Below, piece by piece: positions 2,964 to 63,865 of a stretch of DNA of 64,000 nt. Positions within the stretch are counted from its first letter, which is position 1. Each line of letters starts with the position of its first letter. The DNA is from Pseudogymnoascus verrucosus. Lineage: Eukaryota. Location of the stretch: assembly GCA_001662655.1 (NCBI GenBank), contig KV460220.1; one strand, written 5' to 3'. The notes beneath the pieces are model-generated. The model had not been told where the DNA came from. It did no database searches and was given only the letters and a program-made list of their open reading frames with translations. The position numbers were made by a program, and so were the translations under genes.

Positions 2964-3783
2964 TATGGCAGGAGGAGTTTATTTGCTTGCGGCGGAAATA
3001 AGACTAATTGGTAGGAACGAAGGAAGGAATTAAAATGCAAAAGCGAGGGCACAATGTTGAGGTAAGGGAATCGAGAAGAGAGACGAAGGAGAGAAGGAGA
3101 TGGCGAGTTTGTATAAGCTCTTGCCAAGCCCAGGATTTCCTACAGGCACCCGACGGGATATTGGAGGGGTGAAGCTGAAAGAGTAATGGGCTAATTTTCC
3201 CTAATTGAGACAACTTCGCCCTACCTAAAATAAACTATCCAATAGGGAGAGTGACAGCGGCGCCAGACAGACAGGGGACGGCATCTCGGAATGGAGATTG
3301 AGGGGATCATTGAGCTGTCTTATTCTGGTAGTGTGGAAGAAGTGGAATTGGTATTGGGTAGTGGTGTTTTAGTTTGCGTTGCGGCGTTATTGCTGACCCG
3401 ATTTTTCTGTCTTGGCGGTGCTGGGCTGAGCCATTAGTGAGTGTTGTGGCACATTTGTTCAGCACTCTAGTAAGGGGTTCGCTAGGAATTACTTGGCGAC
3501 ATGTCCATCACAATCTTAGCAGCCACCAGTCACTTTAATTCAGCCTCGCGCTATTTGTCTGACAGTCAGCAGCTTAAACTCTTGGCTGTTAGTTTGCTTT
3601 AGGTAGAGATCCCCAGGCGGAGATCATTGTGTGGGGCGGACGGTCCAGCTATTATCTGACATGCGGAGTACCACATACCAGGCTTGACACATTCAGGGTT
3701 CGTCTGCCTTCGTTCGCTCTGTCATAAATACATCGTGCCTAGTCTCGCAAAGGTTCTTGCCAAGTCGAAGATCGAAAGTCAAT

Positions 3784-4548: not shown

Positions 4549-4607
4549 TTATGGCCCCTTTATTATGCAATCTACACAGTTTATTTCATTTACTCGATAC
4601 GCACCAC

Positions 4608-36863: not shown

Positions 36864-39800
36864 TTACATGTGTACGCATAATTCTTCAGGAATGGTAGGA
36901 GGTAGGTCAGCCGATTTTACCAGCTGATTCCCACACACTGGACAGCTATTTGTTTCCGTAGGGGGACAGAACCTACATATGTCGAGATATTCACACTCAT
37001 AGCGCTCTGCATTTTTCGAGAACCGTCCGAGGCAAATATCACAAAACCGGCTACTCAAATCCTTAGATGGCAATGTAGCCCAAGTTTCTAGGTTTGAATT
37101 TTCTGCTTCGCTTGTTTCGTAGAGGAGCGAGTGGATTTCATGCATTCCCCTCTGCTGGGCCACCATGGCCGGCGTAAGTCCCCAGACATCGGAGCAACAT
37201 TTCTCAACGCCTGGTAAGCTGATTAGGAATTGAATCATGTCTAGATGGCCTCCGCAGACAGCAGCAAATAGTGGTGTTCGTCCAAATCGATCTGGGGTAT
37301 CTGGTCTCGCTCCAGCTGTTATAAGGAGACTCGCTTCCGATATGTGGCCTTCGGCGCTCGCTATGTGCAAAGGGGTTCGACCAAGGAAATTCAAATCAGG
37401 ATTATTCCCATGTTTGAGTAAAGCCCTACCAGCCACATCATGGCCACCCTCAGCCTCCACCAAGGGCAACTGTTGTGGTCCAGTCCCAAGAGGTTCCGGA
37501 TTAGCGCCCCTATCTAAGAGCAGTCTAAGTACCTTCTCATGGCCACTCCATGCAGCCCAGGATAGCGAGGTGTAACCTAATTGATCACTACCATCGATGT
37601 TGGCGCTATTGTTCAGGAGCATCGTAACCACCATATCGTTGCCATTCATGGCTGCTAATTGTAATGGCGTTTGTCTCCTGTGGGACTTTGGGTCAATACA
37701 GGCACCCCTGTTCAGAAGAAGCTTCACAGTCGATTCTGAGCCATTGAAAGCAGCTAGGCATAATGGAGTCAGGCCGTCGCTGTCTCGTCTAGCCTTAATA
37801 TTGGCACCACTATCTAACAAATGTTTGGTTTGTATTTCGTAACCCCTTTTTGCAGCTCGATGTAGTGGCGTTTCCCCCTCCGTGTCCTTCGCTTCGGTGT
37901 TGGCGCCCCTGCCTAAGAGAATCCTGACTACGCCTTCGTTGTTCACCTGCCAAGGTAGGAAGACCCTAGTGGCTTTATGTAGTGGTGTTTCGCCATTTTT
38001 GCCGATAACGTTCGAACTAGTTCAAGGAGCAGTTCAACTATTGTCGGTTGACTACTAAATGCCGCGTGATGTAACGCGCCTTCTCTATATTCACTCGTGC
38101 TTTTGAAATTGGCGCCCATACTTAGAAGCAGTTTGACTGTCGTCGTATGCCCTCGTTTTGCGGCTGTAACAAATGGAGTCCTTCCCCAGTTAGACTTAGA
38201 TTCAATGTTGGCGCCTCTATCCACCAGCAGTGTGAGCACCATATCATGGCCTTTAGATGCAGCAGTATCTAATGGAGTTTCCGAGCTTCCATTCTTGATT
38301 TCAATATCAGCATTATTATCTAGGAGAAGGTTGGCAATCGCTCCATGACCCTGCGACGCAGCCGCATGCAATGGTGACATGCCATCCACGCATATTATAT
38401 CGGTGTGGGCTCCCCTGTCAAGAAGCATCTTGGTTACCATCTCATGGCCGTGGATTACAGCAAAGAATAGGGGTGTGTTATTAATTGAGTCAAGAATATC
38501 CACGTTGTTGGGATTTGTTACAAGAAGTTCTTGCATCAAATGCTCGAGATTGAAAAATGCTGCAATGTGCTCTGCCTTTACATCACTCGTTTTTACCCCG
38601 CGTGTCTCAATGCCAGTAAATGGTTCAAATCCGCAGCGATCACGATCATATGCGGATATTTTAGCCTGACTCTGAAGAAATTTTAGAGCATTAGATGAAA
38701 TCTCAGGCCCTTCTCGGAAATGATGTCCCCAATTGTAGGACGCGTAATTGTAGAAGGGGTATTCGCGAGGAATCCCTTCAATCTCAGCTTCGGTTTGGAA
38801 TCGATCTTCAAACACATCATATGATACGTATGTCAAACAACTATCCGCCATGAGATCGTGAATATTGGGGAACCACGTCTTCTAGGTGTCCTCAAAGTAC
38901 TTCTAGGTGGTGTAGTGTACGAGCGTCACATTTCTCGTTTGCTCGTCCACAGTAACTAGACTACAGCAATATGAAGTCAACTGTTCGATGTTGGTGATGT
39001 TCGTCTCGTCAAATTCGCTCGTTTCAATCTCGACCGCTAGCGCATGTTCCAGCTCTGCGACGGTCAGGGTTCGTCTGGCGTTTAGGATCCAACCGATGGT
39101 CTTCTTCGCGAGGTCAGAAGCATTTGCACTCTGGCGATCGATTCTGCTCATAGTCTCATTATACGCATGGTCATAAGCATTAGACTCAGAGCCAGTGCGG
39201 AACTGTTCCAGCATCCTTTGAATTCCCTTTTCGTTTACTTAGTCGAGGAGCAGGTCAAAATAGAGCCGAGCAAGGAGGAACCTAATTATATTAGCACTGA
39301 CTTAGAATGGCACAGATATCGTACATTTCTTTAGCAAATTCGGTAATAGTATCCTTGATGACCAGCTGCAGGTTTGGCCTCTTTCGAATAAATAGCGGGA
39401 GATCTCCTAGGCGCATGTCGACATAGTGCTGGATATCTTCAGTGCTTGCCCGTATCTCAAGGGAAGCGACGCCCTCAAAATACACCGCAATCTCCTGATC
39501 TAGTCGAGATGTTGCAAGGATTTTGAAACCTTCATCTTGCAGACGGACAAGCCGGCGAATGAATGGGTGACGTACGCTGTGACCACCATCGGAAATCCGG
39601 CATTCATCGAGGGCATCGATGATGACAAAAGCTCTTGTGCACGAAGAAAGGACAGATCGTAATTCGCCGAGCACCTCACCCTCGGAAGGACGACTCCCTT
39701 TTAACGAGTAGTTTTGATAAAATGATCTAGTACTCTCCGGAATTGAGGTCTTTCGCTGCACGGCTTGTCTTAGAAGGGCAGAATAGAGCTCGACAAGTGC

Positions 39801-40625
39801 ATGCTGCTGCCGATAGTTGCAAAAGAGGTACGCGATTCCGATCTCGTCTTGGTTAGGAAATACCTGCTCTAGGTGATCAATGATGATTGATGAGAGAACT
39901 GTCTTTCCGGCCCCAGGAATCCCAGGACAGAAGAGAATCTGCTCTTCGCCGCCGACCCATTGCTGAAACCTCTCCGTTTTCAGCAACCACGTCCCTGTCC
40001 CATCCTGGTGAGAATTGAATACTTCGCTTTGCCGTGCCGAAGGGCTGATTGGGCTTAGCCAAGATAGGATCTTCTCACGTTCATGATCTTCTTGCCCCCG
40101 GTTGAGTTTTTCGATTCCGTGTCTATCATGTTATTCAAAGACATCAGAGTGAGTGTGGGAAGTAGTCATACTGGTTGGCCTTCCCTACAATGAGATTCAG
40201 CATAGAAATATTGGACACGATCCGCGATCGGAAATTGTTGATCTCCGTCTGATCCCATCTGAGTCTCTTCCACGTCTGGCGTACTTTGCCCTTCTAGTCC
40301 GGGGTTGAATCGTTCGCGATAACATTGAGTTTGTTCAGCTTGGCTGAAAGCTCCTCGAGAACATTCTGGCAGCCTTGGATGACTTTGTGGACGCCATCTT
40401 TCTGCTGGCTATCAAATTCTTTTTCATCGAGGCCGTCGATACGGTGTAGTGTGAATATGAGAGATTCGACTCTGGCATCAGTCAATAATGTAATGAACTA
40501 AAGGGTTTGTCTTACTCCTCAGTAATTGCTTTGTACTCTCTGGGAGCCTGCGCAAAGCGGCCTCGCAGGTCGTTTGCGAGTTGTACCAGTAGCACGAAAT
40601 CCCCCACGCTATAGCCGAAGCTCAT
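36864..40625 (-). pseudogene. Fungal NLR (STAND) pseudogene: SesA/HeLo-like N-terminus, NACHT, ankyrin repeats, Cys-rich tail
   Basis: MSFGYSVGDF start, Walker A GIPGAGKT, Walker B IIDALDE, many TPLH ankyrin repeats. In-frame stops at ~40294 (TAG), ~39239 (TAA), 38903 (TAG) and ~38883 (TAG). 1-nt frameshift near 38017. Confidence 0.88.
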
Positions 40626-49285: not shown

Positions 49286-50881
49286 TTACTCAACTACATC
49301 CAAGGTATTGATAACATATCCCTGAAACTTCCTGGCCGAAACCTTGCTCTCAAAGAGAATATCCAATTCCATGTACGTCCTGCCCTTGGTCTCAGGCAAC
49401 CTGAAATACGCCCACACGAGGCAACACAAGCTCATTGACGCAGCCGGGAACGCAGCAATGCCTTTGAGATTTCCCTGCTTTGGATTGAGCATGTACGGTG
49501 CCACAACCGCGCTGATAATAACCATTATATAGCAACTGTTTCGCGCCAATCCGAGAGTCTTGCTGCGCAGGCGACTCGACGATATTTCACTCGCGATGAC
49601 GAATGGGATTGGCCCAACGCTAAGGCCGTAGGTTCCAAACCAGACGAGCAGGAGGACACACTGCGCCCATGCAATGCTGCCTGTGCTTGGTGCGAGAGCG
49701 AGGAATCCCACGATCCACATGATCACGGTCATTACTGCGAGGCCGCAGAGGAAGATCTTTCGTCGTCCGATGTAGGCTTGCAGGAACCAAGAGATGGCTG
49801 TCCCGACAAAGGCGATGCTATAGGTGCCTAGCGCGAGCTTATACGAGTCGCCTGGCGACAGGCCGGCAAGTGTGAAGAAGTAAGTGATGTAGGCCTGTAT
49901 GGCGAAACCAGAGAAGACCTGTGTGGTCCAGGCTAGGCAGGCGATCTCTGTGCGGCGGAAATCCGTGCCCTTGAAGCAGTCGAGGTAACTGCTACCGGCG
50001 CTCACTTCCTTTTCGTGTTGGTTGGTATAGATGATCATGTCCAGATTCCGTTTGACATGGATATTATCTTCATCGTTGAATTCAGACAGGCGTGATAGAG
50101 CGTGTTCGGCGTCTTTGAAACGTCCCTGGCGTACTAGCCACCAAGGAGAGTCAGGCGCAAACCAGAGGATGAAGAAGAGTGGAACAGGCCAGACCCATTG
50201 CACGGCAAAGGGGATCCTGTACGACCATTCCGTGGGGTTTGATATCAAGCCATCAAGGACACCGGCTGCGATTATATGGCCAATGACCCAGCAGAGGTTA
50301 ACGAATGTGGTGAGGTAGCCCCGAAGAACCGTGGGGCAGACTTCTGCAGCATACGACGGCGCGAGGATGCCAAAGAAGCCCCATGGGAGTCCGCACAAGA
50401 CTTCACCCACGAAGAGGACCTCGATGTTTGGCGCGAAGAAAGTGATGAAGATAAAGGCCGTCATTAGCGCATACGAGGCGAGCAACAATTTCTTGTGTCC
50501 AAATCTATCGACCAAGATTCCGTTGGCGAAGATGCCAATCATGATACCGATGTTCGCGCCTGCGGTGAGGCCCACCTGCCAGGGCGCGGCAATGGAATAT
50601 TTGCCGTTTGGGAGTTGTTCGCCGTACTTCTTCTGAAAGGTTGGATAGGCGTAGAAGGAGCCGATGATCTGGATGTCGTAGCTCTCCATGACTGTGGCCA
50701 TGGACACAATGACGGACCAGGCCACGGCTTTTCGATAGATTTTCATGGCCTGCCAAAAGGTCAGATCGTGCTCGGCCTCAGTGGCAAGGCGTGCATTTTC
50801 GCCCACGACCTTGCTAGAGGACCCGAGTGCTGCGTCTCCATGGTCCGTTAGGACTTCCGTCTTCTCCTTTGTGGTGTCCAT
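49286..50881 (-). CDS. MFS sugar porter (alpha-glucoside/maltose permease-like clade)
   Basis: Intronless. MESYD, DRFGHK, YAAEVCPTVLRGYLT, YRIPFAVQW, PDSPWWLVR, DCFKGTDFRRTEI, LPETKGRT. First in-frame ATG at 50881. Confidence 0.92.
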   Translation of the reverse strand: MDTTKEKTEVLTDHGDAALGSSSKVVGENARLATEAEHDLTFWQAMKIYRKAVAWSVIVSMATVMESYDIQIIGSFYAYPTFQKKYGEQLPNGKYSIAAPWQVGLTAGANIGIMIGIFANGILVDRFGHKKLLLASYALMTAFIFITFFAPNIEVLFVGEVLCGLPWGFFGILAPSYAAEVCPTVLRGYLTTFVNLCWVIGHIIAAGVLDGLISNPTEWSYRIPFAVQWVWPVPLFFILWFAPDSPWWLVRQGRFKDAEHALSRLSEFNDEDNIHVKRNLDMIIYTNQHEKEVSAGSSYLDCFKGTDFRRTEIACLAWTTQVFSGFAIQAYITYFFTLAGLSPGDSYKLALGTYSIAFVGTAISWFLQAYIGRRKIFLCGLAVMTVIMWIVGFLALAPSTGSIAWAQCVLLLVWFGTYGLSVGPIPFVIASEISSSRLRSKTLGLARNSCYIMVIISAVVAPYMLNPKQGNLKGIAAFPAASMSLCCLVWAYFRLPETKGRTYMELDILFESKVSARKFQGYVINTLDVVE

Positions 50882-51013
50882 ATCTGCTGCCCGCTCCAAG
50901 CGCTTGTTTTTTTTTAAAAATAGAGGGGGAACCGCATGTTAATTAAGCTTCGAGATTTCTTAGACAGCCGCGCAAGCTGTCAAACGTCAACATGATCAAT
51001 ATCAAACTAGTCC

Positions 51014-51023
51014 ATGGCGCCAT
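51014..51023. promoter_or_regulatory. ATGGCGCCAT palindrome, matching the CYS3/MetR (sulfur-starvation bZIP) consensus ATGRYRYCAT
   Basis: Perfect 10-bp palindrome in the divergent promoter of the sugar porter and the sulfatase. Confidence 0.55.
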
Positions 51024-51929
51024 ATGGAGGATTCTCACCCAGCCATGTGGAAACAGATACTGAACTCACCAGCAGGTTACATTAACATTGCTTCTGTGCC
51101 GCAAATGTAACCATACTATATAGGGGCTCGTAGGTCAATTAGGCATTTCTACTCTCACCACCAATAACAGATCAACCATCTATCTCAATCCAGCAACAGA
51201 GTTGCGGCTCGACGAATCAATCCAGATGCTGCACAGAGGGCCCCACAGTTGCTGTGGCCGTCGGCTATCGGCTCGCGTCGCCTTGCGACTCCGGGGTGCA
51301 TCCCAGCCGATTTCCGCAATAACATCATCCGACGTTGTGGGTGATATCAGTGTGTCCCCATTATTTTTTACCACACAAACCCACAACTTGTATTTAGTTT
51401 TTATAAATCACATCTCGTAACTACTTACTCTTTAACTTTAATATTTCGGATAAACAGTGTTTTCACTTTGAATGCCACAACCGGGAAAGGGGAATATGAA
51501 ATTTTAGGGTGGAAGGCGTCTTATTCTAAGATTCATACCTATATTACATGCCCCACAAAATATTTACTTATGGAGTAGTAGTATAGTAATTAACATCACA
51601 CAATAAACTCCTGTAACTTTTCTTTTTGATTCAGCTCCTACAGCTCTTATCATTTCACTGTTTCGTGGTTACTGTGTCGTTCGTTGCAAAGTTCCAACCC
51701 GTATCATGTGGGCTTTGATAGTTTAGGCTAGCAACGTCAAAAGCAACATCAAAAGCAACATCAACAGCAACGTGGTTACGGTTATGGAACCTGGACACCC
51801 CCGCTCTAGATAGCCTTTTTTGGCGCTAGTATGCTGGTGCTATAATAGTGCAACTTACCCGACTGCGCCGGGCTGTCATATATCGCATAGGGTTCTCCCC
51901 GTCAAGGTTGTACTTACAGTTTAGTATAG

Positions 51930-51997
51930 TACGTGTGCTGCCTATCATTTTCGTCCTCTACATTACGTGTGCTGCCTATCATTTTCGTCCTCTACAT
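51930..51997 (+). repeat. Perfect 34-bp tandem duplication just upstream of the sulfatase start
   Basis: tacgtgtgctgcctatcattttcgtcctctacat at 51930-51963 and at 51964-51997. Confidence 0.95.
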
Positions 51998-52026
51998 TGA
52001 CCTATACAGCCAAGCCCAACCTCAAG

Positions 52027-53544
52027 ATGGCGACCCGTCCCAACATTCTTTTTATCATGGCCGATGACCATGCGTCAAAGGCAATAGGATGCTATGGCGC
52101 GAACATTAACAGCACTCCTAATATGGACCGCATTGCTGAAGAAGGAATGCGGTTCAACCACTGCTATGTCACCAACTCGATCTGCACGCCAAGCAGAGCT
52201 TCAATTTTAACTGGCACCTACAACCACGTCAATGGCGTCGTCACCCTTGCAAGCAAGATAAACAAGCACATACCTAATGTCGCCAAGCACTTACGCACGG
52301 GCGGATATCAAACTGCTATGATCGGAAAATGGCATCTGGGTGAAGGAAGTGATCATGAGCCTACTGGATTTGACTTCTGGTCGGTTGTGTCTGGGCAGGG
52401 CGCGTATCACGATCCGGAGATGATTGAGATGGGCGAGACGCGGTATGAGAAAGGATACGCGACAGACATCATTACAGACAAGTCTCTGGACTGGCTGAAA
52501 AGCCGTGATCAAGACAAGCCGTTTTTCTTAATGTGCCACCACAAAGCACCACATCGGTCTTGGGAGTGTGATCCAAAACACGCAGACCTCTACACGGAAG
52601 ACGTCAAGGTCCCGGAAACTTTTGATGATGACTACAAGAATCGCGCAAAAGCAGCAGCCGAGGCCAAGATCAGGGTAGACACTGATCTAACGTACTTTGA
52701 TCTTGGGCTGGCTCAGCCTGATGGAGGATCTGAGGTTGGCGAATTGATCAGCCTTACATCTACGTTAAGAAAGATCCCAAACCCTGAGGATGTGACAAAA
52801 TTACGCCTCATTGATAAGCAGAGCGGTGAGGTGTTCACGTTTAAGACGAACGCTGAGCTTCGGCATTTCAAATATCAGCGTTATATCAAGCGCTACCTAC
52901 GCACCATTGCCTCGATAGATGATAACGTTGGGAGGATGTTGAAGTACCTTGACGATGAAAACCTGACAAATGACACCGTCGTCATTTATACATCCGACCA
53001 AGGCTTTTTCCTTGGAGATCACGGCTGGTTCGACAAGAGATTCATGTACGAAGAATCTTTCCAGATGCCATTCATGATTCGATATCCACGAGAGATCGCC
53101 AAGGGCAGCGTATGCGACGACATTGTCTGCAACGTCGATTTCGCCTCCACATTCCTAGATCTGGCCGAGCTGCACAAGCCATCTTACATGCAGGGCCGCT
53201 CGTTCCGTAAGATATTGAACGGTAACACGCCAGACGATTGGCAACAGATCGCTTATCACCGCTACTGGATGCACAGAGATGCTGAGCATAACGCGTATGC
53301 GCATTATGGCATTCGTGATCAACAGTATAAGCTGATATACTGGTATAATGAAGGTTATGACCTTCCTGGTACGTCTGCTGGAGGACAGCCAAGAGAGTGG
53401 GAGCTTTTCGATTGTGAGAAGGATCCTCTGGAACTGTTTAACGTCTTTGGACAATCTCAGTATACGGAGGTTGCCAAGAGGATGATTGCTCAATTAGACG
53501 ATAAGATGAGGGAGATTGGGGATGAACCGGAGCATATACCTTGA
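52027..53544 (+). CDS. Cys-type formylglycine sulfatase, bacterial-type N-acetylglucosamine-6-sulfatase-like (S1_11-like), no signal peptide
   Basis: MATRPNILFIMADDH, signature CTPSRASILTG, GYQTAMIGKWHLG, HHKAPHRSW, YTSDQGFFLGDHGWFDKRFMYEES, WELFD..KDPLE. Single exon. Confidence 0.88.
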   Translation: MATRPNILFIMADDHASKAIGCYGANINSTPNMDRIAEEGMRFNHCYVTNSICTPSRASILTGTYNHVNGVVTLASKINKHIPNVAKHLRTGGYQTAMIGKWHLGEGSDHEPTGFDFWSVVSGQGAYHDPEMIEMGETRYEKGYATDIITDKSLDWLKSRDQDKPFFLMCHHKAPHRSWECDPKHADLYTEDVKVPETFDDDYKNRAKAAAEAKIRVDTDLTYFDLGLAQPDGGSEVGELISLTSTLRKIPNPEDVTKLRLIDKQSGEVFTFKTNAELRHFKYQRYIKRYLRTIASIDDNVGRMLKYLDDENLTNDTVVIYTSDQGFFLGDHGWFDKRFMYEESFQMPFMIRYPREIAKGSVCDDIVCNVDFASTFLDLAELHKPSYMQGRSFRKILNGNTPDDWQQIAYHRYWMHRDAEHNAYAHYGIRDQQYKLIYWYNEGYDLPGTSAGGQPREWELFDCEKDPLELFNVFGQSQYTEVAKRMIAQLDDKMREIGDEPEHIP

Positions 53545-54159
53545 AAAATAGTTTACAGACGATGCGGAGGGGCGGTGTAGCAATAATATGCTATTTTGTA
53601 GTAGACCTTTGACGCTGGTGTAAATAGAGTAGCTTCACAAAATATATTATACAACCAACATTTTTATAATATATATATTTGAAATCCCTAGGAAAATGAA
53701 AGAGTCCCAGCAGCAGCACAGTCACAATTCGAAAGGATAAAACGGCCGAGTACGAATGCATAAATAACAAGATCTGTATGAACTTGGGAGGCCGCATTAT
53801 TCACGCTTGATATCCCATTTTTGTCAAACTGACCCGGGGAAGAGGTTGAGACTAGAAGTATGGATGATCCGACTGAGCTGAGCGGATTGATCCTAGATCA
53901 AGACTACGCTACTCTTGTTTTGTGAGGTTGAACTGACCATGCAACGTTACTTATCCGAATCGCGTAATTTGGGGTGTTCTCTGCTTTTTCCTAATTTGGA
54001 TTCAAACAGCCATACGATCGGCGGGCTTGGTAGAGTTGGCAATTATCCTAACTGGGAGATGTCCATAGCATTTGGAGATAAGTTGAGCCGCTCTACCCAT
54101 TTTTAAACAGTCATTGATTTTTATGTTCATATTTCAAATCATTACATACATGTTTCACC

Positions 54160-56026
54160 ATGAAGATATTTGCTTTATTATCACTCGTCTCTCGGGTGAC
54201 AGCAATATGGCCAGCCCCTCAATCTTTCTCTAACGGAAGTTCCGCTGTTTGGCTTGCGGAGGACTTCCTGGTCACATACAATAATCATAATGTAATGTTC
54301 TTGTGAGGGTGTATTTCAACTATCAAGCCGTCTTATTTTCAATGAAGAAACTGATAATTGCGTTCTACTGCAGCTTCACAAACGCACAGAAGAGACAAGA
54401 TCAACAAGAATATCCAGCTTAGAAATTGTCCAGGCGGCCGTAGACAGGGCTCGAAAGTCAATATTCACAGAAAGCTTTGTCCCTTGGAAGTTCTACCCGC
54501 GTAATGAGATTGATAAATTCGAACCACCTGCCAACGGTAAATCAAAAACATATATACGGCAACTCGAGATAACTCAAACCACACCTGACAATTCGGCAAC
54601 ATTCAAGCCTCTCGCGGGACAAGTTGACGAAACTTATAACTTAACAATAGGAGCAGATGGAGTAGCATCCATTACCGCAGTATCCTCAACTGGCGTCCTC
54701 CATGCTCTTGAGACTTTCAAACAACTGTTTTACTTACACTCGGTTAGTGGTACGGCTGGAGTGTATTGCAACCTCGCCCCGGTCAATATCAGAGATGGCC
54801 CAAAGTTTGGCCATCGGGGTGTGAACTTGGATGTTGCTAGAAATTGGTTCCCAAAGGAGACCATCCTTCGAACCATTGACGCCCTTTCCTGGAACAAGTT
54901 CAATCGCTTCCACATCCACATGACAGATGCACAGTCTTGGCCCATAGATATCCCTGCATTGCCAGAGTTGTCAAAAAAAGGCGCGTACCAGACTGGATTA
55001 TCCTATACTCCTCAAGATATCGAGGATATCCAAGTCTACGGCATCTATCGTGGTGTTGAAGTCATCATAGAGATAGATATACCAGGCCATACAACAGCTA
55101 TTGGGTTTTCGCATCCAGAGCTCATTACTGCCTTCCGGGAAAAGCTATGGCACAATTACTGCGGCGAGCCACCTTGTGGACAGTTAAAACTTAACTCGAC
55201 CGCCGTATACGACTTTATCACTCAACTATTCGACGATCTTTTGCCCAGAGTTTCTCCTTATTCGGCATACTTCCACACTGGCGGCGACGAAATCGACGCT
55301 CGAGACTATGTTCTGGATGAGACCGTGAAGTCCAACGATACCGCAGTATTAACCCCGTTGATTCAAAAGTTCATTGATCACAGTCATGACCTAGTCAGGA
55401 AAGCCGGCCTCGCACCAATTGTTTGGGAGGAGATGCTTCTCGACTGGAACCTCAAGCTCGGTGATGATGTCGTGGTTCAGACCTGGATCAATAGTGCATC
55501 TCTCGACAAGGTAACCGCGCGTGGACATAAAGCTCTCTTCGGCAGTAACGACTTCTGGGTCAGTAACCCCCAAGCCTCCTCAAATAATTTGCGGGTCACT
55601 AACAAGCGACAGTACCTTGCCTGTGGTCACGGACAGTGGTTCAACTTCAACGACGATACCTTCGCTGCCCACTACCCATTCAACGACTTCTGCTCTCCGC
55701 TTAAGAACTGGCGTCTAATGTACTCGTACGACCCAACCGCCAACCTATCTGCCAAACAGGCTGCGTTGGTACTTGGAGGCGAGGTCCACCTCTTCACCGA
55801 GCGGTCTGACCCGTCAAACTTGGATGCGATAATGTGGCCACGCACAGGTGCGGCAGGAGAAGTGATGTGGAGCGGGCGTCAAGATTCGAGCGGGAAGAAT
55901 AGGGGACAGGTTGACGCAGCACGGAGGTTGTCTGATATGAGAGAGAGGATGGTAATAAGGGGGGTTAAGTGTGAACCAATTCAGATGGCATACTGCACAC
56001 AATACGATGGTGACTGCACCTGGTAA
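54160..56026 (+). CDS. Secreted beta-N-acetylhexosaminidase (GH20)
   Basis: Signal peptide then IWPAPQ. HRGVNLDVARNW, HIHMTDAQSWP, EIDIPGH, catalytic HTGGDE, VWEE, MWPR. Introns ~54292-54373 and 55559-55612. Confidence 0.93.
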
Positions 56027-56259: not shown

Positions 56260-57147
56260 TTACTCGTAGAATACGAGACACCTAACCTCAATACTCTGTC
56301 TCCCCGGGGCCTCTTTCGGCGTCTGCGGATCTATAAACGCCGTATGCCCCGAGCCATGCGCAATTCCCCCTCTCCCAGTCATCAGCTCGCTCTCTGAATC
56401 AAAGCACTTGATAAACATAGCCATGTCGGGCGTCATATCCTTGAAGTAATGGAACCGGTGCTTCTCGTTCGGTGCTATGACATACTGCTCGCCCGTGACC
56501 TCGTACCCCTCTGTCGACGCCGCGGAGCTCGGATCCGCGAGGACTTCGCCCGTTTGGCTCGCGCCTTTGGGGTACAGGAGGTCCACCTTGACGAAGTCGC
56601 TAGGGTCAATGCTGCGCCCGTCGATGACGGCGAGGGGGAAGTCCGACGCGGGGTGCTGGATTGGTCGCCAGACGTTTATAATTTGGTACCGACCCTTGAG
56701 GAGTCCCTCGATTTCGTCTTCTGGGGCATGACGACGCACTCTGACCTCAGCTGCGGCGGGGGTCTGGTCTATATGGACTAGTTGGACTGGTTGTCGCGGA
56801 GAGGCCTTCGCCCTTCGTCGTATCGTGTGATCAAATATGACCACCTTTTTCACGCCCGGAAGCTTCTGGCGAACTAGAGCCTCAACTTCACCGTAATACC
56901 CCTCTTTCACTTGCTTATCATCTGTAAAGGACGTTTCTTTCGCTGGGGCAGTGTACACAGCAAAGCCACAATTATCGGTAGTGAACTCTTTCTCATGGCC
57001 AGTTAAGTCATGGACTGGACGGCTATAATCTTTTAGCCGGTAGGAATTGCCAGCTCCATCAACCTTCGTCCAAGGTTTCTTAAAGGGTTCGGTGGCGTGT
57101 GGATCGTATGAAGTTGGATCAATATATTTGAATGACGCAGTAGTCAT
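56260..57147 (-). CDS. AsaB/GA4-desaturase/CmcJ-like protein (putative non-heme iron hydroxylase/desaturase)
   Basis: FDHTIRRR, VHIDQT, RYQIINVWRPI, PLAVID, FIKCFDS, HTAFIDP, RQSIEVRCLVF. Likely start MTTASF at 57147. Confidence 0.8.
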   Translation of the reverse strand: MTTASFKYIDPTSYDPHATEPFKKPWTKVDGAGNSYRLKDYSRPVHDLTGHEKEFTTDNCGFAVYTAPAKETSFTDDKQVKEGYYGEVEALVRQKLPGVKKVVIFDHTIRRRAKASPRQPVQLVHIDQTPAAAEVRVRRHAPEDEIEGLLKGRYQIINVWRPIQHPASDFPLAVIDGRSIDPSDFVKVDLLYPKGASQTGEVLADPSSAASTEGYEVTGEQYVIAPNEKHRFHYFKDMTPDMAMFIKCFDSESELMTGRGGIAHGSGHTAFIDPQTPKEAPGRQSIEVRCLVFYE

Positions 57148-57761
57148 CGTAGCGGTTAGGTAGCTGACAGTGCTGGTATGAACGAAAGATATAGGAATCC
57201 CTTGCTTCAAAACTAAAGCTCTCACTTGCTTTCTTAGAAGTGGGATATCGGTGACGAGACAACGAAATGCTTGAAATGTCATGGTACTATTTTGGCGGAA
57301 TGAGGGGTCGTTGAAGCTTACAAATTAAGCTACTTACATGGCCCACTAAGCCAAGAAGTTAGCGATGCCACCCTCACCACATCCCTTAACCGCAACAACG
57401 CATTGAGCTATTCTCTCTCGAAGCTGCCCCTTCCCGTCTCTTTGATTAGGTTACTCTGATTGTGGTAGTAAGAGCAGGGATGGAGGATTGCTGCGATGAT
57501 GAAATAATTCTAATATGTTTTTGAGCACGTGACAGGCGCTGTTCATGAGCAGTGATTATACGATTGGGTTTGATGATTGATGTATTTATATATCTATATC
57601 TTATAAGAATTGTAGTTTATAAAACCCATAATAGTAACATGCTGAATCGGTAAGGCCTTCAACATCTATATGTGAAAAGCTGTCCACAACGACCGTTTCT
57701 CAACGTCTCTAGTATACCGCGTAAACATCTATATGATAAACCACATATCCCCTGTACTCCC

Positions 57762-59670
57762 CTAATTTGCCGAGTTTGATGGCTGGGACTGTTTATTGCC
57801 GACAAAGCTGTTCTGTCGACTCGCCACATAGCTGTTCGGCCGGCTCGCCACGTAGCTGTTCTGACGACTCCCCATACCCTGTCGAACCCTAACACTCTGC
57901 TGAGATCGCGCGAAAGAATTAGCCCTCGAGTGTGTAGGCATTCTTGAAAGGCGATGGCCGCCGGTAGCCATTTCTTCACGCGCACTAGAGAGTTGTTGCG
58001 CGAAGGGTGAGCGCTTGCGTAGCTGAGGTCCACGGAGATAAATGACGTAGACGGCAACAACAAGGACGCAAGAAATGCAGAAGAGGATGGTGAAAGCGTA
58101 TGGAAGGTGATTTTTCCCACCGATATCTGCAGTTGTTGTTAGCTTGGAATCTGGATGGGTTAAAATACGACAACTTACTTTGGAAAAATGGAGTCGCAGG
58201 AATAGTAAGGACACCAGCGAGGAAGTCACGCGACCATCCATTACCACCCGTCGCAGAAGCTGAATATGGTCCGTAGGCACAGACCATATAATCGATTGTT
58301 GCCATGTAAATACTATAGTTGGCGATTCCAACAATAGCTGCTGCAATACAGGTGCCGATCCAGTGGATAGGTGGTCCGGTCGAAGTCCATCCGAAGATTA
58401 TTAGTCCTATTGGCAGGCATGGAGCAGTAAATAGAAGCCACCAGAGACGTGATTCGTATTGGGCCTTCTCGTCGTGTGGTTTCTCCTTCCGTTCCTTGAT
58501 ATTGCGCCTAATGGCGGGAATAAAAGAGGCCCACGCGATAAAATATCCGACCAGAAGTGGGATGAAGGCGAGGCCGACCTGGTACGTGTTGAAGCCCCAT
58601 TGCTTGTAAACGAGTCCATATGACTGGACAAACATGAAGATGAGGGCATCGCTGAAGCCACTGAGGAGTGATAGTGTGAGAACGATTGGCTCTGTTAAGA
58701 ACATCTTGAAAGGCCGAATCCAAGTGGCTAAGATTTCCCGAGCAGAAAACCGTTCCCTGAATGGAACAAGCTCGTTGGGGCCATAGACATTGGGACTTGT
58801 GCCGTCCTTGCGCCGCCTTTTAGCGATCTTATCCATCATGACTGTAGTTCTAGTCTCCGGGACGGTAAGTAAGTGAAGAAGCTGGACAGCAACACCAAAA
58901 ATGAGTTGGATCCAGATATTCCACCTCCAGGCACAATATTGCTCGACAAAACCGCCAACAACAGGACCAAGGACGGAACCTCCCACCGACGAAAAGACAA
59001 TGAAGGCGACGGCATATTGTTGCCTGTCGGCTTCAAACATATCGGCAATCATCCCCAACGTGACCGAGCCACCAGCGGATGAGAGACCGCCGAGCGCACG
59101 ACCAACTAAAACAGTTGCAAAGTTCGGTGCAAGAGCAACCGGAATTTGCCAAATATTGACCAGAAACAAACTTGCTTGAAGGATTGGCTTGCGACCCAGT
59201 TCCTCACTCCACGGTGCCCAGAGTTCGCAGCCAAAAGCGTAGGTGATGAGGAAGATTGCCGCTCCAGCACGGGCAGCTTGATCGCTAACACCGAACTCCG
59301 CACCTATGCCACCGATGGCATTGGAGTATAAACTAGTGTTGAAGTTCATTGACACTTGGACAATGAAAATAACGCTTAATATCCACCACTTCTTCGCCGA
59401 GGTAAATGAGAACCCAAGTTCATCGTAGCAGTCCTCCTCGGTGATCTCTTGCTGTACGTTTGTTCCGGTCTTTTCGATTACACGAGTTTCCTCGAGGCCA
59501 TGAATGGGAAAGCGCGGGCGGTTTGGCGGTGCCTTTTCGCCTGTCGAATCGTGATTGTCGGTGCTGGTGGACGTTGTTAAGTCCTCACTGGAGCTTGCGT
59601 GTCCTATGGTTTCGATTGTTTCCAGGGCATTCGCATCTCTGTGGGGGTCTGATTCATGGGGAGTCGCCAT
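57762..59670 (-). CDS. MFS drug:H+ antiporter (DHA1 family)
   Basis: KKWWIL, WAPWSEELGRKP, VPETR, LTEPIV, ESRL, YGPYSASA. Intron 58127-58178 joins the 57985.. and 57762.. ORFs. Confidence 0.9.
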
Positions 59671-61374: not shown

Positions 61375-63865
61375 ATGTCGGAACAACACAACCCCAACGT
61401 CGCGGCCGGGCTCGAGCCAAATGGCAATTTTTCATGGGATGATTCCTTCGCAAGTGAATCCCAATCGAAGCGGCAGTCTTCGCACCGTAATTGCCATTGC
61501 TATCGTTCACATGCGGATGCGGCTGACATGAACTACAGAGGACAAGAAGAAGTACCATTGCCCATGCGGCAGCACCATGTCTCGAAGGTATGTCCATGGG
61601 ATCTTCGAACTCAGGCTACAACAAAAGAGAGCAAAGATGATCTAATCGTCCTCGCATTTAAGCGACGTACTGTTGCGACATATTCGAAAGTGCCAGATGG
61701 CCCGGGATACACTTGAGAGCTCGGGTTCCACGTCAAGAAGGCCGTCTCGGTCTAAAACGGCGTGCAATGAGTGTGCCGCCTCTAGACTGAAATGCGACTC
61801 TCAAAATCCTTGCTCAGGATGCAAAAAGAAGTCATTGAGGTGTGAGTACACAAGGAAAGGATACTCGGATCCATACAAAGTCTTCCGTATCCCAGCGGCA
61901 AATCCTGTCGTGGAACAGGCACAACAGGCACCCGAGCCACACCCTCATCAGCCTCAAAACATGAATGCAGAATCTGCCGCCAGCATTCTACCAACGCCGC
62001 CTGGCAATACTATATCTGCTGCGGAACAAAGTGGTGTGCTGGAATTCACCGGGTTTGATTTTAATACACCCTTCGATCACACAAATGCGACCCCCCTTTC
62101 AGGCTACAGCTCAGCCGGCATGAATGATGCTTTCCTAGACCTAGACTGGGACTCATTATTAACGAATTTAGACTGGCCGGAAAATATGGTCTCGGCAAAC
62201 AATGCCGCGACGGCTTCGTCAGATTTTACCGAAATAAGCTCAGTTCCGAAAGAGGCTGCATGGAATTTCACTGAAGGGCTTCAACTGCGGCAAATCGACA
62301 GTGTCGAAGCCAAGTGTGTTGAGATACAGAACTACATAGGGGCGTTTCAGACGGGTATTGACCATACCATTCTATCCAAGTACATAACTCGAGATCGGCT
62401 GGTCGATTGTGTCCAGCTCTACGGGAAATGCTTCCAATCCATCCACCCCATTCTTCATTTGCCAACATTTGAACTCACTAAGACGCCACCTGACTTACTT
62501 GCAGCCATGATGCTAGTGGGCGCTTGCTATTCCAGCAACATCATTCCTCCAGCGATTGTTGTACAGGGGGCAATACATATGCTGCTTGTATTAGAGTGCT
62601 CGTCGGTAAGCGCGTCTCGGTGGCTGTTTCGGAACATAGACGCTGACAGGTTTATTTTAGCACGAAAGAGCAATGAACGCGCCCCCATTAGCATCAATAC
62701 AGGCCACTGCTCTATTGTGTCAGCTCCTCATTTTAACCCAGAACCCCCAAGCCTATTATTTCGCCACAATGTATAGAGCTCGCACCATCTCGGTACGTCT
62801 AATATCAACGTTATTTTTCTTTGAAATTGGCCGGACTAATCATGGTTGTTCCTGAGTGTAGATGGCCGAACGTGCAGGTCTTTTCTACGCCAGCGACACC
62901 CCAAGTCACTGGGATTTGAAAGAGAGCTCCTTTGATTGGTTTCAATGGAGTCAATTAGAGATGCGAAAAAGGTTAGCAGGATATATGAACTGACGTATAT
63001 GTTCTGCACAACTAACATTGAGCGATCTGGTAGACTTGCGCATCACATTTTTGTCGACGACATTGGAGCCAATATGTTTACACGAAGCTCATCACACATA
63101 TCACCATTCACGTTCTACGTCGACACACCATGTTATAATGATTGCTGGGTAGCCCCCACTGCGAATGAATGCCTAGAGAAGCTACGAATCGCACCTCCTC
63201 CTATTAAGGTAGCAACGGCTGTCAAAAGGCTTCGATCGGCCTCCTCTCTACAGGGCAATCATCTTTTCGATGCATCAGATTGTGGGATGCTTGAAATCAT
63301 AGTAGCGCTTCACAACGTACTGTTCCGCGCAATGGAGGAGAGCTTGGATGATGAGAATAATGTGCCACTGGACGACGCCACCTCGTCAACCCAATCAACA
63401 GATGTGAATTTCTCAGACTTACTGAATCGCGACCTCCTCAATTACGACATTGCAAATATTGCCAGTAAGATTGTCGGTAAATACGGGTCCGCCTCTATCA
63501 GACGCGTTGACGATGCTCTCGATGCCTGGCTGAGGAATTGGAATGCTCGTCTAAGGCGTGACATCTACGACGAGAGACACGGCGCCTTCACTCATCCATT
63601 GAACTTCTGGCTCCTGGCTAAATTGTTTGTCGTTCTGCACTTTTTTCGAAACCGTTATCAAGGAAACGTCCCCGACATGGGGGAGGATGGCCAACCACAA
63701 CGAGATTCAGAACTGCATGCATTCTACAACAATAATGGAGCGGCCCAGGGTAGGTTGGCAATCCAGATGCAGGTGATTGGTTGGCTATCAAAGCTTAGAA
63801 AGCAACGAGAAGGAAGCTTGTTGTCTGGCGGGAGTTTCATATCGGAGGTTTTGAACATGCAATAG
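61375..63865 (+). CDS. Transcription factor with a C2HC zinc finger, a Zn(II)2Cys6 cluster and a fungal-specific TF domain
   Basis: Spliced KKKYHCPCGSTMSRSDVLLRHIRKC (introns ~61488-61538 and ~61588-61661), then ACNECAASRLKCDSQNPCSGCKKKSLRC and FQSIHPILHLPTF. Further introns near 62607, 62793 and 62971. Confidence 0.85.

Follow-up and report, generated by a model that had tools for sequence, protein, structure and literature searches.

A divergent pair of genes, encoding an MFS sugar porter and a sulfatase of the S1_11 type, was found next to a GH20 gene in the 64-kb stretch of DNA analysed here (hereafter the window), and the same transporter-sulfatase pair, adjacent or one gene apart, is present in at least 12 other records from Leotiomycetes and Eurotiales, which is the strongest new result of this analysis. 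With moderate confidence, we propose that the pair takes up a gluco-configured sugar sulfate, probably N-acetylglucosamine-6-sulfate (GlcNAc-6S), and removes its 6-O-sulfate in the cytosol, possibly under sulfur regulation, and that the GH20 supplies the substrate in Pseudogymnoascus. If true, the locus would allow this soil fungus to feed on sulfated amino sugars. The initial annotation had described three adjacent genes, a porter head-to-head with a sulfatase and a GH20 next to them; all three are present and intact at 49286-56026, with 1145 bp between the MFS and sulfatase genes, and the GH20 gene follows the sulfatase gene after 615 bp in the same orientation. The features are as follows.

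49286..50881, minus strand: sugar-porter MFS, alpha-glucoside-permease-like subfamily (Pfam, NCBIfam, homologues)
50882..52026, no strand: divergent intergenic region common to MFS and sulfatase (sequence read)
51014..51023, no strand: match to the presumed CYS3/MetR-type consensus, palindrome ATGGCGCCAT (ATGRYRYCAT scan of the window)
51930..51998, no strand: 34-bp unit perfectly duplicated in tandem, 28 bp ahead of the sulfatase ATG (TRF)
52027..53544, plus strand: intronless formylglycine-type sulfatase, S1_11 type, 505 aa, predicted to be cytosolic (Pfam, PDB matches)
54160..54291, plus strand: GH20 exon 1, signal-peptide-like N-terminus and propeptide start (spliced model equals P0251)
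54374..55558, plus strand: GH20 exon 2, GH20b-like N-domain and most of the catalytic domain including HTGGDE (Pfam Glyco_hydro_20)
55613..56026, plus strand: GH20 exon 3, opening with Y440-L441-A442 and containing F500 (alignment to canonical GH20s)

The sulfatase is encoded by one uninterrupted ORF, matches the Pfam models Sulfatase (4.5e-56) and SGSH_C (6.4e-50), and contains the motifs quoted in the initial annotation, MATRPNILFIMADDH, HHKAPHRSW and a third. Its start lies 2 residues ahead of the first conserved strand, and in the alignment this strand corresponds to residue 27 of the 5g2v chain. Comparison with 19 fungal and bacterial homologues revealed that 14 begin at most 8 residues from this start, two are shorter models starting at MADDH, and three, including two from Pseudogymnoascus, carry a Ser-rich extension of 16-20 residues from an upstream ATG, which is GTG in the window. 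Given this start position and the GTG, the alignment with the 19 homologues and 5g2v leaves no room for a signal peptide and shows that the protein is not extended N-terminally beyond the first strand, suggesting that the enzyme is cytosolic, and the earlier description of an intronless sulfatase without signal peptide was borne out.

The best solved relative is BT4656, an N-acetylglucosamine-6-sulfatase of S1_11 (PDB 5g2v; 445 bits, E 2e-132, full length), followed by a mucin-desulfating sulfatase (PDB 7p24; E 3e-112), in line with the S1_11 GlcNAc-6-sulfatase type assigned initially. The NCBIfam models for choline sulfatase and arylsulfatase reached scores of 152 and 217, far short of the cutoffs of 433 and 481, respectively. 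The formylglycine (FGly) motif is intact, with Cys53 at codon 52183-52185, and a D336/R338/H421 triad is present, with FDKR and DAEH at the positions aligned with the BT4656 triad. The latter (D385/R387/H471), whose equivalents in BT3177 were subjected to alanine scanning, has been suggested to restrict S1_11 enzymes to 6S-D-gluco sugars (Luis et al., bioRxiv 10.1101/2021.07.23.453482), making GalNAc-6S, originally put forward as another substrate, unlikely. D336, R338, H421, C53 and R57 are kept in all 120 nearest homologues, fungal ones included, an invariance that speaks for an active carbohydrate sulfatase under purifying selection. The counterpart of Y250 of BT3177, a residue in contact with the N-acetyl group, is Tyr223, and this position is Tyr in 117 of these homologues and Phe in 3. 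R290 of BT4656, an N-sulfate binder, is replaced by Ser in the window sulfatase and the N-substituent region is variable, so that Glc-6S stays a possible substrate; from these residues GlcNAc-6S appears indistinguishable from Glc-6S or another 6S-gluco glycoside.

Phylogenetic analysis placed 19 fungal sulfatases in a single clade (SH-aLRT 97), the sister of which is Marinobacterium/Marinomonas (SH-aLRT 96), within Pseudomonadota. This nesting points to one old transfer of the gene from a proteobacterium to Ascomycota. The cluster had been regarded as undescribed in fungi; S1_11 sequences in Ascomycota were already noted by Luis et al. (bioRxiv 10.1101/2021.07.23.453482), without mention of the gene pairing.

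The porter ORF (49286..50899(-), first ATG at 50881, 531 aa) is apparently intronless and matches Pfam Sugar_tr (2e-86, profile positions 2-452 of 452), MFS_1 (2e-21) and the NCBIfam sugar porter model TIGR00879 (328 bits, cutoff 238), and its homologues have lengths of 525-536 aa with 79-94% identity. It belongs to an alpha-glucoside/maltose-permease-like group, relatives of which are named by the sources for neutral disaccharides; transport of an anionic sugar by this porter is predicted. Linkage to the sulfatase in fungi was judged from locus tags (Venustampulla BP5553_08298/08299, Cadophora malorum IFR04_009200/09201, Leptodophora ACEPPN_005842/005841 and Penicillium subrubescens N7473_005618/005617), accession numbers (two pairs of Leptodontidium, KAH6693378/77 and KAH9210629/28, Cadophora sp. 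MPI-SDFR-AT-0126 KAH7403014/15, Cadophora DSE1049 PVH73270/72, Aspergillus granulosus KAL2817204/206 and A. heterothallicus KAL3467307/305) or coordinates (a Tara contig with the sulfatase at 1112-2647 (-) and the MFS at 3618-5231 (+)). A relative in run X24 is also represented by contigs bridging MFS to sulfatase, one of which (record 8) spans 50660-52180. Four weaker records, including A. cavernicola, A. varians and P. nalgiovense, in which porter and sulfatase have just the length of their contig in common, were kept apart from the at least 12, and the best porter match and the sulfatase lie on separate contigs in four genomes (Cladophialophora immunda, Rasamsonia, Xylariomycetidae FL0641 and Coleophoma). 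The sulfatase-linked porters fall into at least three separate clades of a poorly resolved tree, and this scatter suggests that the pairing may reflect repeated recruitment rather than co-inheritance.

In bacteria, an importer lies beside the sulfatase in 10 of 13 annotated loci, and no adjacent importer was found at the other three. Two Marinomonas loci and one of Marinobacterium carry an IclR regulator and a TRAP transporter; four (Granulosicoccus, Roseobacter, Marinovum with IclR, and Aliiruegeria, where an IclR gene was not called) carry a CUT1 sugar ABC system; and three (Sinorhizobium, Mesorhizobium and Comamonadaceae) carry a ROK protein and an NMT1/TauA-like ABC system, the Mesorhizobium locus additionally containing an FGE, a second sulfatase and a DeoC aldolase. 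The fungal pairing, conserved far beyond Pseudogymnoascus, mirrors these transporter-sulfatase operons; the label of a PUL-like module given initially is no more than an analogy.

The shared promoter region contains the only match to ATGRYRYCAT in the 64-kb window (51014-51023), a motif which we take to be the CYS3/MetR-type consensus. A CYS3 site had been listed as further support for the cluster; the match does fall inside the divergent spacer, and it is a single one where 1.26 are expected per 64 kb, with a chance of landing in this 1.1-kb spacer of about 0.02, estimated post hoc. Sulfur regulation through this candidate CYS3-like site is possible. At the sulfatase-proximal end of the spacer, TRF detected 2.0 copies of 34 bp with 100% matches (51930-51998), and contigs of relatives skip 43-49 nt at this tandem duplication.

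Two introns with GT..AG borders, 82 and 54 nt long, interrupt the GH20 gene; the second has a CTAAC branch site, is in frame (55559-55612) and is read into by three public gene calls (P0156, P0165 and P0169). The spliced product of 576 aa shows 100% identity to P0251, an annotated P. verrucosus protein, across 574 columns and matches Pfam Glyco_hydro_20 (1.1e-83), with the HTGGDE catalytic pair intact and a hydrophobic N-terminus, MKIFALLSLVSRVTA, that by eye looks like a signal peptide. The D-to-A change pointed out initially is real, YLDCG being altered to YLACG (D442A, codon 55619-55621), and a second change, absent from that annotation, converts LW.E to LF.E (W500F, codon 55793-55795). Y/D/W is present in 107 of 120 GH20 homologue clusters, Y/A/F in 8 and Y/D/F in 1, with 4 truncated. 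Only six columns conserved in canonical GH20s are fixed differently in the variant clade, and the only non-conservative ones among them, D442A and W500F, both map to the pocket for C6 of the sugar. This clade is monophyletic (support 100, stem 0.46) and small, comprising Pseudogymnoascus and some Penicillium; the window GH20 shares about 61% identity with Leotiomycete canonical paralogues, and both forms occur in Pseudogymnoascus (P0150 is canonical). In TfHex, Asp472 (the Asp of YLD), Glu546 and Glu332 adjoin C6 and are blamed for the poor turnover of pNP-GlcNAc-6-sulfate, with <1-13% relative activity (Kulik et al., PMC4384365). The sulfate-binding residues of HexA (YLNR), Bt4394 (YYINR) and SGL (YYICR) directly follow the Tyr, and motif comparison found in YLAC none of the Arg/Asn, Gln/Trp or Cys/Arg sulfate-binding residues of the sulfoglycosidases described there (PMC11659886). 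Sulfate tolerance is therefore plausible, and the D-to-A change, read initially as a pointer to a sulfated substrate, is rightly placed at C6 but permissive rather than diagnostic; Ala and Phe might just as well suit a different C6 substituent.

Combining these data, we propose that the core is a two-gene module, in which a proton-coupled sugar porter would import a small sugar bearing a 6-O-sulfate on a gluco-configured ring, most likely GlcNAc-6S, free or as a short glycoside, and the cytosolic S1_11-type formylglycine sulfatase would strip the sulfate, Cys53 presumably being converted to formylglycine in the cytosol. Against this reading, eukaryotic FGly formation is known in the ER (PMC4659905) and no FGE was found in the 64-kb window. 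Inorganic sulfate would then enter assimilation and the sugar ordinary hexosamine or hexose catabolism. As an extension in Pseudogymnoascus, the secreted GH20 paralogue, with its O6-binding Asp now Ala and its pocket Trp now Phe, should accept 6-sulfated terminal GlcNAc and free GlcNAc-6S outside the cell.

Linkage of the GH20 to the sulfatase is confined to close relatives: the two genes are adjacent in the same orientation in every Pseudogymnoascus record seen (V496_06344/06343, VE00_04244/04245, VE03_04129/04128), are fused in public models (1003 and 1026 aa), and are bridged by an X24 contig covering 52974-55285 (record 10), so that the three-gene unit was found only within this genus. It is conceivable, though rather unlikely, that only the porter-sulfatase pair is functional, scavenging free 6-sulfated gluco-sugars (Glc-6S, GlcNAc-6S), and that the GH20 is a mere neighbour acting on another substrate, for instance another C6-modified HexNAc, or showing altered transglycosylation. 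The pair occurs in the other fungal records without evidence of a GH20, Venustampulla having a listed GH20 that is canonical and on another contig, and the variant-GH20 Penicillium species (expansum, crustosum, solitum, vulpinum, coprophilum, concentricum, paradoxum, flavigenum and others) do not overlap with the sulfatase holders among the best 120 sulfatase clusters listed (brevicompactum, salamii, olsonii, bialowiezense, nalgiovense and subrubescens). The missing sulfate-binding residues in YLAC, the putative identification of glucose-6-sulfate among free marine exometabolites (PMC12911362) and the sister bacterial loci, which couple the sulfatase with small-molecule importers and not glycosidases, fit the same role. 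However, two non-conservative clade-fixed changes exactly at the C6 pocket would be a striking coincidence beside a 6-O-sulfatase, the GH20 adjacency is constant in Pseudogymnoascus, and at the Comamonadaceae L114 locus the sulfatase does have a GH3 glycosidase as a neighbour.

An endogenous or signalling role, namely the turnover of sulfated chito-oligosaccharides (Nod-factor-like lipo-chitooligosaccharides, LCOs) or sulfated glycans that belong to the fungus or its partners, is improbable. Sulfated LCOs are produced by fungi, and trimming from the non-reducing end by a GH20 would leave GlcNAc-6S. Luis et al. (bioRxiv 10.1101/2021.07.23.453482) raised NOD-factor catabolism for soil and fungal S1_11, with 6S-GlcNAc at the Nod-factor reducing end, but a reducing-end sulfate needs no change in the GH20 -1 subsite, the candidate CYS3-like site and the importer pairing fit nutrient scavenging better, and no sulfotransferase or chitin-synthase-like gene was found in the 64-kb window. 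Most improbable is chance adjacency of an ordinary alpha-glucoside permease, a GH20 and a sulfatase whose substrate is a non-carbohydrate ester or which, without FGly maturation, has no activity in the cytosol: it would suit the permease names of the porter relatives, the lack of an FGE within the 64-kb window and the several yeasts with FGly sulfatases in which SUMF-type enzymes are not reported (PMC4659905), but it leaves unexplained a linkage that recurs in two fungal classes and parallels bacterial operons, the invariant catalytic Cys/Arg and sugar triad, and the choline-sulfatase and arylsulfatase scores below cutoff.

Turning to known systems, BT4656 (6S-GlcNAc/GlcNS) and BT3177 (6S-GlcNAc) align with the window sulfatase over the full length (E 2e-132 and 3e-112) and have in common with it the CxPxR FGly motif and the D/R/H triad, as well as an aromatic side chain at the position for the N-acetyl group, whereas the Bacteroides thetaiotaomicron S1_11 enzymes have signal peptides and are periplasmic and encoded in PULs, unlike the leaderless enzyme of this eukaryotic host. 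Proteobacterial relatives, 70-75% identical to the window sulfatase, are likewise leaderless and beside importers. The bifidobacterial route follows the same logic, with extracellular release of GlcNAc-6S by the B. bifidum GH20 BbhII and import and cytoplasmic desulfation in B. breve UCC2003, where the cluster also encodes the anSME that matures the sulfatase; nothing equivalent to this anSME was seen in the 64-kb window. B. breve metabolises GlcNAc-6S by an intracellular sulfatase in dependence on cross-feeding (review PMC7326374), and the route is divided between two bacterial species, unlike the single fungus proposed here. BbhII holds the sulfate by Gln and Trp (YFPQ..W), where the window GH20 has Ala (PMC11659886). 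In the HexA alpha subunit, Bt4394 and SGL, the specificity residues after the conserved Tyr lie where the window GH20 has replaced the canonical Asp; these enzymes add an H-bond donor and Arg, whereas Ala-Cys would merely remove a repelling carboxylate, together with the Trp-to-Phe change. Canonical fungal hexosaminidases (A. oryzae 5OAR, T. flavus, P. oxalicum) keep Asp472 and Trp544 (TfHex numbering), with 6-sulfated turnover of <1-13% (PMC4384365), and the window GH20 belongs to a separate clade. They resemble it in the signal peptide, the KR-site propeptide and the GH20 domain with its D-E pair (E 3.6e-59 to A. oryzae chain 5oar_B). In the yeast BDS1-SOA2 pair carbohydrate is not involved, BDS1 being an alkyl/aryl sulfatase of another fold and Soa-type transporters not being sugar porters. 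Nevertheless, this S. cerevisiae pair also combines a sulfatase gene of proteobacterial origin with a syntenic sulfur-compound transporter (Holt et al. 2017, PMC5303821), and the proposed window system is close to both the bifidobacterial route and BDS1-SOA2.

Three intact genes occupy 49286-56026, in agreement with the three-gene observation in the initial annotation, which had proposed a sulfated-hexosamine utilisation cluster here:

ATG at 50881, minus strand: sugar-porter MFS gene (porter), 531 aa; Pfam Sugar_tr, 2e-86, profile positions 2-452 of 452
52027-53544, plus strand: sulfatase, uninterrupted 505 aa; Pfam Sulfatase, 4.5e-56, and SGSH_C, 6.4e-50
54160-54291, 54374-55558 and 55613-56026, plus strand: three exons of a GH20 gene; Pfam PF00728, 1.1e-83

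The porter gave a full-length model match to the sugar porters (MFS, TC 2.A.1.1) and scored 328 bits against NCBIfam TIGR00879 (cutoff 238). It is transcribed divergently from the sulfatase, 1145 bp away, and the GH20 starts 615 bp beyond the sulfatase on the same strand. The spliced GH20 model of 576 aa is 100% identical over 574 columns to an NCBI protein of P. verrucosus (P0251). One NCBI name of this protein, 'N-acetyl-glucosamine-6-phosphate deacetylase', is a misnomer for a GH20 hexosaminidase and is also borne by several lichen and Geoglossum GH20 homologues. Intron 2 of the GH20 (55559-55612, 54 nt) is stop-free and in frame, which is why three public calls (P0156, P0165 and P0169) read into it, and two other public models (P0248 and P0250, 1003 and 1026 aa) fuse the sulfatase with the GH20. 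The genes around the trio encode a TRP-like channel, a CmcJ/NvfI oxidoreductase, an MFS_1 transporter and Zn-cluster factors, and do not suggest hexosamine metabolism or formylglycine (FGly) maturation. Among them, the 340-aa protein at 56260-57282 (minus strand) has no Pfam match but hits the NCBIfam model for CmcJ/NvfI family oxidoreductases (1.6e-70). Next come the MFS_1 transporter (57985-59670, minus strand) and, at 61673-62776, a Zn2Cys6 factor, and these genes may form a small unrelated metabolic cluster. Elsewhere in the window, ankyrin-repeat ORFs followed by an NPHP3_N/NACHT-like P-loop ORF (36864-39986, minus strand) display a fungal NLR-like architecture, and an ORF with centromere-protein/Tc5 transposase DNA-binding domains and DUF3425 (33037-34305, plus strand) could be a pogo-like transposase that has been domesticated or has degenerated.

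The best solved relative of the sulfatase is BT4656, the N-acetylglucosamine-6-sulfatase of B. thetaiotaomicron, with an end-to-end alignment of 445 bits (E 2e-132), followed by a mucin-desulfating sulfatase (379 bits, E 3e-112), which is S1_11 like BT4656; subsequent PDB matches, an exo-L-galactose-6-sulfatase among them, score 351-324 bits. The type I sulfatase motifs CTPSR, DDH, HHKAPH, DQG and GDHG are all present and are kept in 119-120 of the 120 best homologue clusters. According to the available text of Luis et al. (bioRxiv 10.1101/2021.07.23.453482), an Asp/Arg/His triad of S1_11 enzymes, D385/R387/H471 in BT4656, grips O4 and O3 of the sugar and occurs in 91% of 955 sequences. The FDKR and DAEH motifs of the window sulfatase align to this triad (D336, R338 and H421), which is invariant, together with the FGly Cys and its Arg, in all 120 best homologue clusters, fungal and bacterial. 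The S1_11-like assignment in the initial annotation is supported by both the top PDB matches and the conserved triad. In addition, Tyr223 aligns with Y250 of BT3177, an N-acetyl contact, and is Tyr in 117 and Phe in three of these clusters, and R290 of BT4656, which binds an N-sulfate, is replaced by Ser. Because the triad is kept, Tyr223 is present and R290 has given way to Ser, the substrate is probably an N-acetylated 6-sulfated gluco-sugar, glucose-6-sulfate (Glc-6S) being another possible candidate. GalNAc-6S and Gal-6S are unlikely substrates given the gluco-specific S1_11 triad, as opposed to the S1_15 arrangement. Identities as a choline-sulfatase, an arylsulfatase or PehA were rejected, as their NCBIfam scores fall far under the cutoffs.

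The sulfatase begins two residues ahead of the first conserved strand, and 14 of the 19 homologues printed likewise start within eight residues of it; of the others, two have shorter models and three begin at an upstream ATG that adds only a short Ser-rich stretch, a codon that is GTG in the window. Since the start hugs the first conserved strand, as in most homologues, the sulfatase is predicted to have no secretion signal, as originally proposed. It is 97% identical to the sulfatase of P. destructans; taken with the GH20 match above, this assigns the window to P. verrucosus or a strain nearly identical to it. Fungal homologues sharing 72-98% identity occur in Pseudogymnoascus, Venustampulla, Cadophora, Phialocephala, Coleophoma, Aspergillus, Penicillium, Rasamsonia, Cladophialophora, Diplodia, and even in a yeast, Trichomonascus. 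Leaderless proteobacterial homologues, mostly marine and rhizosphere, are 60-75% identical. In a 62-row tree obtained by a quick search with SH-aLRT supports only, for which 18 named fungal proteins and 43 of 80 bacterial loci were chosen and the remainder omitted, all 19 fungal rows fall together in a single clade (SH-aLRT 97), which lies within Pseudomonadota and has Marinobacterium/Marinomonas as its sister group (96). Because the fungal rows make up one clade inside Pseudomonadota, the tree fits a single bacterium-to-fungus transfer of the sulfatase. The order within the fungal clade is discordant with the species tree (Trichomonascus groups with a member of the Xylariomycetidae, Diplodia is enclosed by Eurotiales and Cirrosporium is placed next to Pseudogymnoascus), a hint that the gene, once acquired from bacteria, later passed from fungus to fungus. 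Two contigs in the same tree, one from a 'Methanobacteriota' MAG (L057) and one from SAR324 (L058), are almost the same, probably because of a binning error.

The neighbourhoods of 13 bacterial sulfatase loci were annotated as follows.

Neighbours of the sulfatase at 13 bacterial loci
Marinomonas (2) and Marinobacterium: IclR regulator and TRAP transporter
Granulosicoccus, Roseobacter, Marinovum and Aliiruegeria: CUT1 sugar ABC system, with IclR called in three of the four
Sinorhizobium, Mesorhizobium and a Comamonadaceae: ROK protein and TauA/NMT1-like ABC system, with a GH3 also present in the Comamonadaceae
Three further loci: no clear importer

TRAP systems transport organic anions. The locus of Mesorhizobium sp. 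Root554 (L102, 9568-12270) has the look of an entire island for the catabolism of sugar sulfates: genes for a ROK kinase and a DeoC aldolase precede the sulfatase, and a gene with an FGE-sulfatase domain lies directly 3' of it, followed by a second sulfatase. The available text of PMC12911362 gives a putative identification of glucose-6-sulfate among free exometabolites of the sea. Together with the importers beside the bacterial genes, this makes the sulfatase family look like one that desulfates imported sugar sulfates in the cytoplasm. Such a role may bear on a puzzle described in the accessible part of Luis et al. (bioRxiv 10.1101/2021.07.23.453482), namely that many marine S1_11 sequences have no known 6-sulfated gluco-substrate, as the bacterial relatives look like importers coupled to the cytoplasmic desulfation of free sugar sulfates. 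In fungi, a eukaryotic sugar porter appears to have been substituted for the bacterial importer.

Linkage of porter and sulfatase in other fungi was read from locus tags, consecutive accession numbers and same-sized contigs of the homologues.

Placement of porter and sulfatase genes in other fungi
Adjacent or one gene apart: Venustampulla echinocandica (BP5553_08298/08299)
Adjacent or one gene apart: Cadophora malorum (IFR04_009200/09201)
Adjacent or one gene apart: Leptodophora (ACEPPN_005842/41)
Adjacent or one gene apart: two Leptodontidium
Adjacent or one gene apart: Cadophora sp. MPI-SDFR-AT-0126 and Cadophora DSE1049
Adjacent or one gene apart: Aspergillus granulosus and A. heterothallicus
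Adjacent or one gene apart: Penicillium subrubescens (N7473_005618/17)
Divergent, 970 bp between: a Tara Oceans contig
Bridged by one contig: a relative in sequence run X24
On same-sized contigs only: A. cavernicola, A. varians, P. nalgiovense and one further record
On different contigs: Cladophialophora immunda, Rasamsonia, Xylariomycetidae FL0641 and Coleophoma

At only 48-54% identity, the porter matches in the four different-contig genomes may be paralogues. Those porters that are linked to a sulfatase are themselves only 53-58% identical to the window porter, compared with 73-74% for their sulfatases, and fall in at least three clades of a poorly resolved tree, which lends no support to one common origin for them. 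The pairing is therefore either ancient and followed by much loss, or has been repeatedly assembled, and under either history it argues for function, not chance. A porter-sulfatase module is well supported by the comparative evidence. The linkage expected for the proposed cluster recurs widely for these two genes, but that of the GH20 was seen among Pseudogymnoascus only. In all three Pseudogymnoascus genomes with both locus tags listed, the sulfatase has the variant GH20 (the Ala442/Phe500 form described below) as its neighbour, two further genomes carry fused sulfatase-GH20 models, and a relative's contig bridges the two genes. Because all these genomes are congeners, the adjacency is weak as evidence of selection. 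Venustampulla possesses the porter-sulfatase pair, and the GH20 among its matches listed is a canonical one on another contig.

The GH20 contains the catalytic domain, the HTGGDE Asp-Glu pair and the acetamido-polarising Tyr (Y440) of the family. The Asp (YLD) and Trp (W-x-E) of the canonical -1 subsite are absent, and A442 and F500 are found instead, so the D-to-A change pointed out earlier is real. At these three pocket positions, the best 120 GH20 homologue clusters read Tyr/Asp/Trp in 107 cases, Tyr/Ala/Phe in eight and Tyr/Asp/Phe in one, with four truncated there. The Ala/Phe enzymes form a monophyletic clade (support 100) on a long stem (0.46), comprising Pseudogymnoascus and Penicillium paradoxum, discolor, expansum, crustosum, solitum, vulpinum, griseofulvum, coprophilum, concentricum, flavigenum and others; one member of the clade (P0246) has kept the Trp, and a canonical paralogue (P0150) is retained in Pseudogymnoascus. 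A column scan, the canonical set of which was picked by the D and W motifs so that the unbiased counts are those of the 120-cluster tally, gave six columns conserved in canonical enzymes and otherwise fixed in the variant clade: four conservative changes (V/L, I/V, M/L and D/E) along with D442A and W500F.

In the Hex of T. flavus, as described in the available text of PMC4384365, C6 is encircled by Asp472 from the YLD motif, Glu546 from W-x-E and Glu332. These residues are blamed for the fact that pNP-GlcNAc-6-sulfate is turned over poorly, at <1% by A. oryzae, 6% by P. oxalicum and 13% by T. flavus. The sulfate binders of human HexA and bacterial sulfoglycosidases take up precisely the two positions that follow the Tyr (YLNR, YYINR and YYICR), according to the accessible part of PMC11659886, the authors of which regard GH20 sulfate-binding motifs as diverse and unpredictable from sequence. 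No such motif after the Tyr (NR, CR, Q..W or SN type) was found in the window GH20, which reads YLAC and offers no Arg, Asn, Gln or Trp donor there. We read the loss of the repelling carboxylate with no gain of Arg or Asn as a permissive C6 pocket that would fit a 6-sulfate. A metagenome scan with the GH20 returned 44 fungal loci of 42-67% identity, taken as canonical-type by identity only; none had a sulfatase or porter in its flanks (tblastn, E 1e-10), a weak negative control at best, and by the same identity-based classing no second lineage with the variant GH20 emerged from the scan.

In the promoter shared by porter and sulfatase, the sole match to ATGRYRYCAT in the 64 kb, ATGGCGCCAT (51014-51023), is a single post hoc match and a candidate site that would be suggestive of CYS3/MetR control of the pair. 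The same intergenic region contains a 12-nt repeat, AGCAACATCAAA, in 3.5 copies (51730-51771), and a perfect 34-bp tandem duplication (51930-51998) lies 28 bp 5' of the sulfatase ATG; contigs of relatives skip 43-49 nt at the latter, and the repeat copy number is therefore strain-variable. Three small sequence runs from three studies, guessed to be RNA (X1, X8 and X17), contain contigs the size of single genes from relatives that differ at about 6-7% of letters. These contigs span porter and sulfatase separately and leave the GH20 uncovered, and are taken as a sign of neither expression nor silence. No FGE gene was found among the window ORFs. As far as the available text of PMC4659905 goes, the known eukaryotic FGly-forming enzyme acts in the ER, and SUMF genes are unreported in several yeasts possessing FGly-type sulfatases.

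We tentatively propose, as a possibility that falls somewhat short of probable, that the locus combines a one-time sulfatase capture, a repeatedly rebuilt porter module and a GH20 sulfoglycosidase of Pseudogymnoascus. Ascomycetes would have captured a cytoplasmic 6-sulfated-gluco sulfatase once from a marine-type gammaproteobacterium, and an importer plus cytoplasmic sulfatase module would have been rebuilt repeatedly with eukaryotic sugar porters. The GH20, as the first fungal sulfoglycosidase, would complete this module in Pseudogymnoascus and perhaps also in certain Penicillium, tolerating the 6-sulfate by a new Arg-free 'YLAC / L-F-x-E' pocket. The interpretation first offered is supported in part: the porter-sulfatase module stands, but the role of the GH20 and the exact substrate are still inference.

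Organic sulfate esters are a major pool of soil sulfur, and to our knowledge almost nothing has been charted of how fungi use sugar sulfates. If the proposal is true, these fungi would possess a complete route by which to draw sulfur, nitrogen and carbon from the sulfated glycans of animals or microbes, and a function would be provided for both the widespread 'arylsulfatase A-like' gene of Ascomycota and a 'maltose permease-like' porter subfamily. It would also represent a bacterium-to-fungus transfer integrated with host transporters and imply a cytosolic formylglycine-generating activity new to fungi, sharpening the old question of fungal formylglycine without a recognisable ER-type SUMF. 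The pocket would be a candidate new solution to sulfate tolerance in GH20 enzymes, which are wanted as tools in the analysis and synthesis of sulfated glycans (PMC11659886, available text). The novelty claimed initially appears to hold for the porter pairing, which, like the HGT tree and the GH20 clade, we found undescribed in the literature on fungal sulfatases, but S1_11 sequences in Ascomycota were already remarked on in the accessible part of Luis et al. (bioRxiv 10.1101/2021.07.23.453482), the Table S7/Extended data 3 of which may list fungal members. Judging by titles and abstracts, none of the papers listed on HGT and sulfatases in Ascomycota deals with this sulfatase family.

Among known systems, membership of a Bacteroidetes PUL is out, as the locus is eukaryotic and has no TonB-dependent transporter or SusD among the window ORFs; the earlier description as 'PUL-like' is thus a functional analogy only, the SusC/SusD pair that defines such loci being absent. 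The S1_11/GH20 pairs of Bacteroides are one of the closest known systems. The proposed route also resembles that of bifidobacteria, in which, according to the available text of PMC7326374, a GH20 sulfoglycosidase frees GlcNAc-6S and B. breve desulfates it inside the cell after import. A fungal counterpart is BDS1-SOA2, described in the available text of PMC5303821, in which a horizontally acquired sulfatase is likewise paired with a transporter of sulfur compounds.
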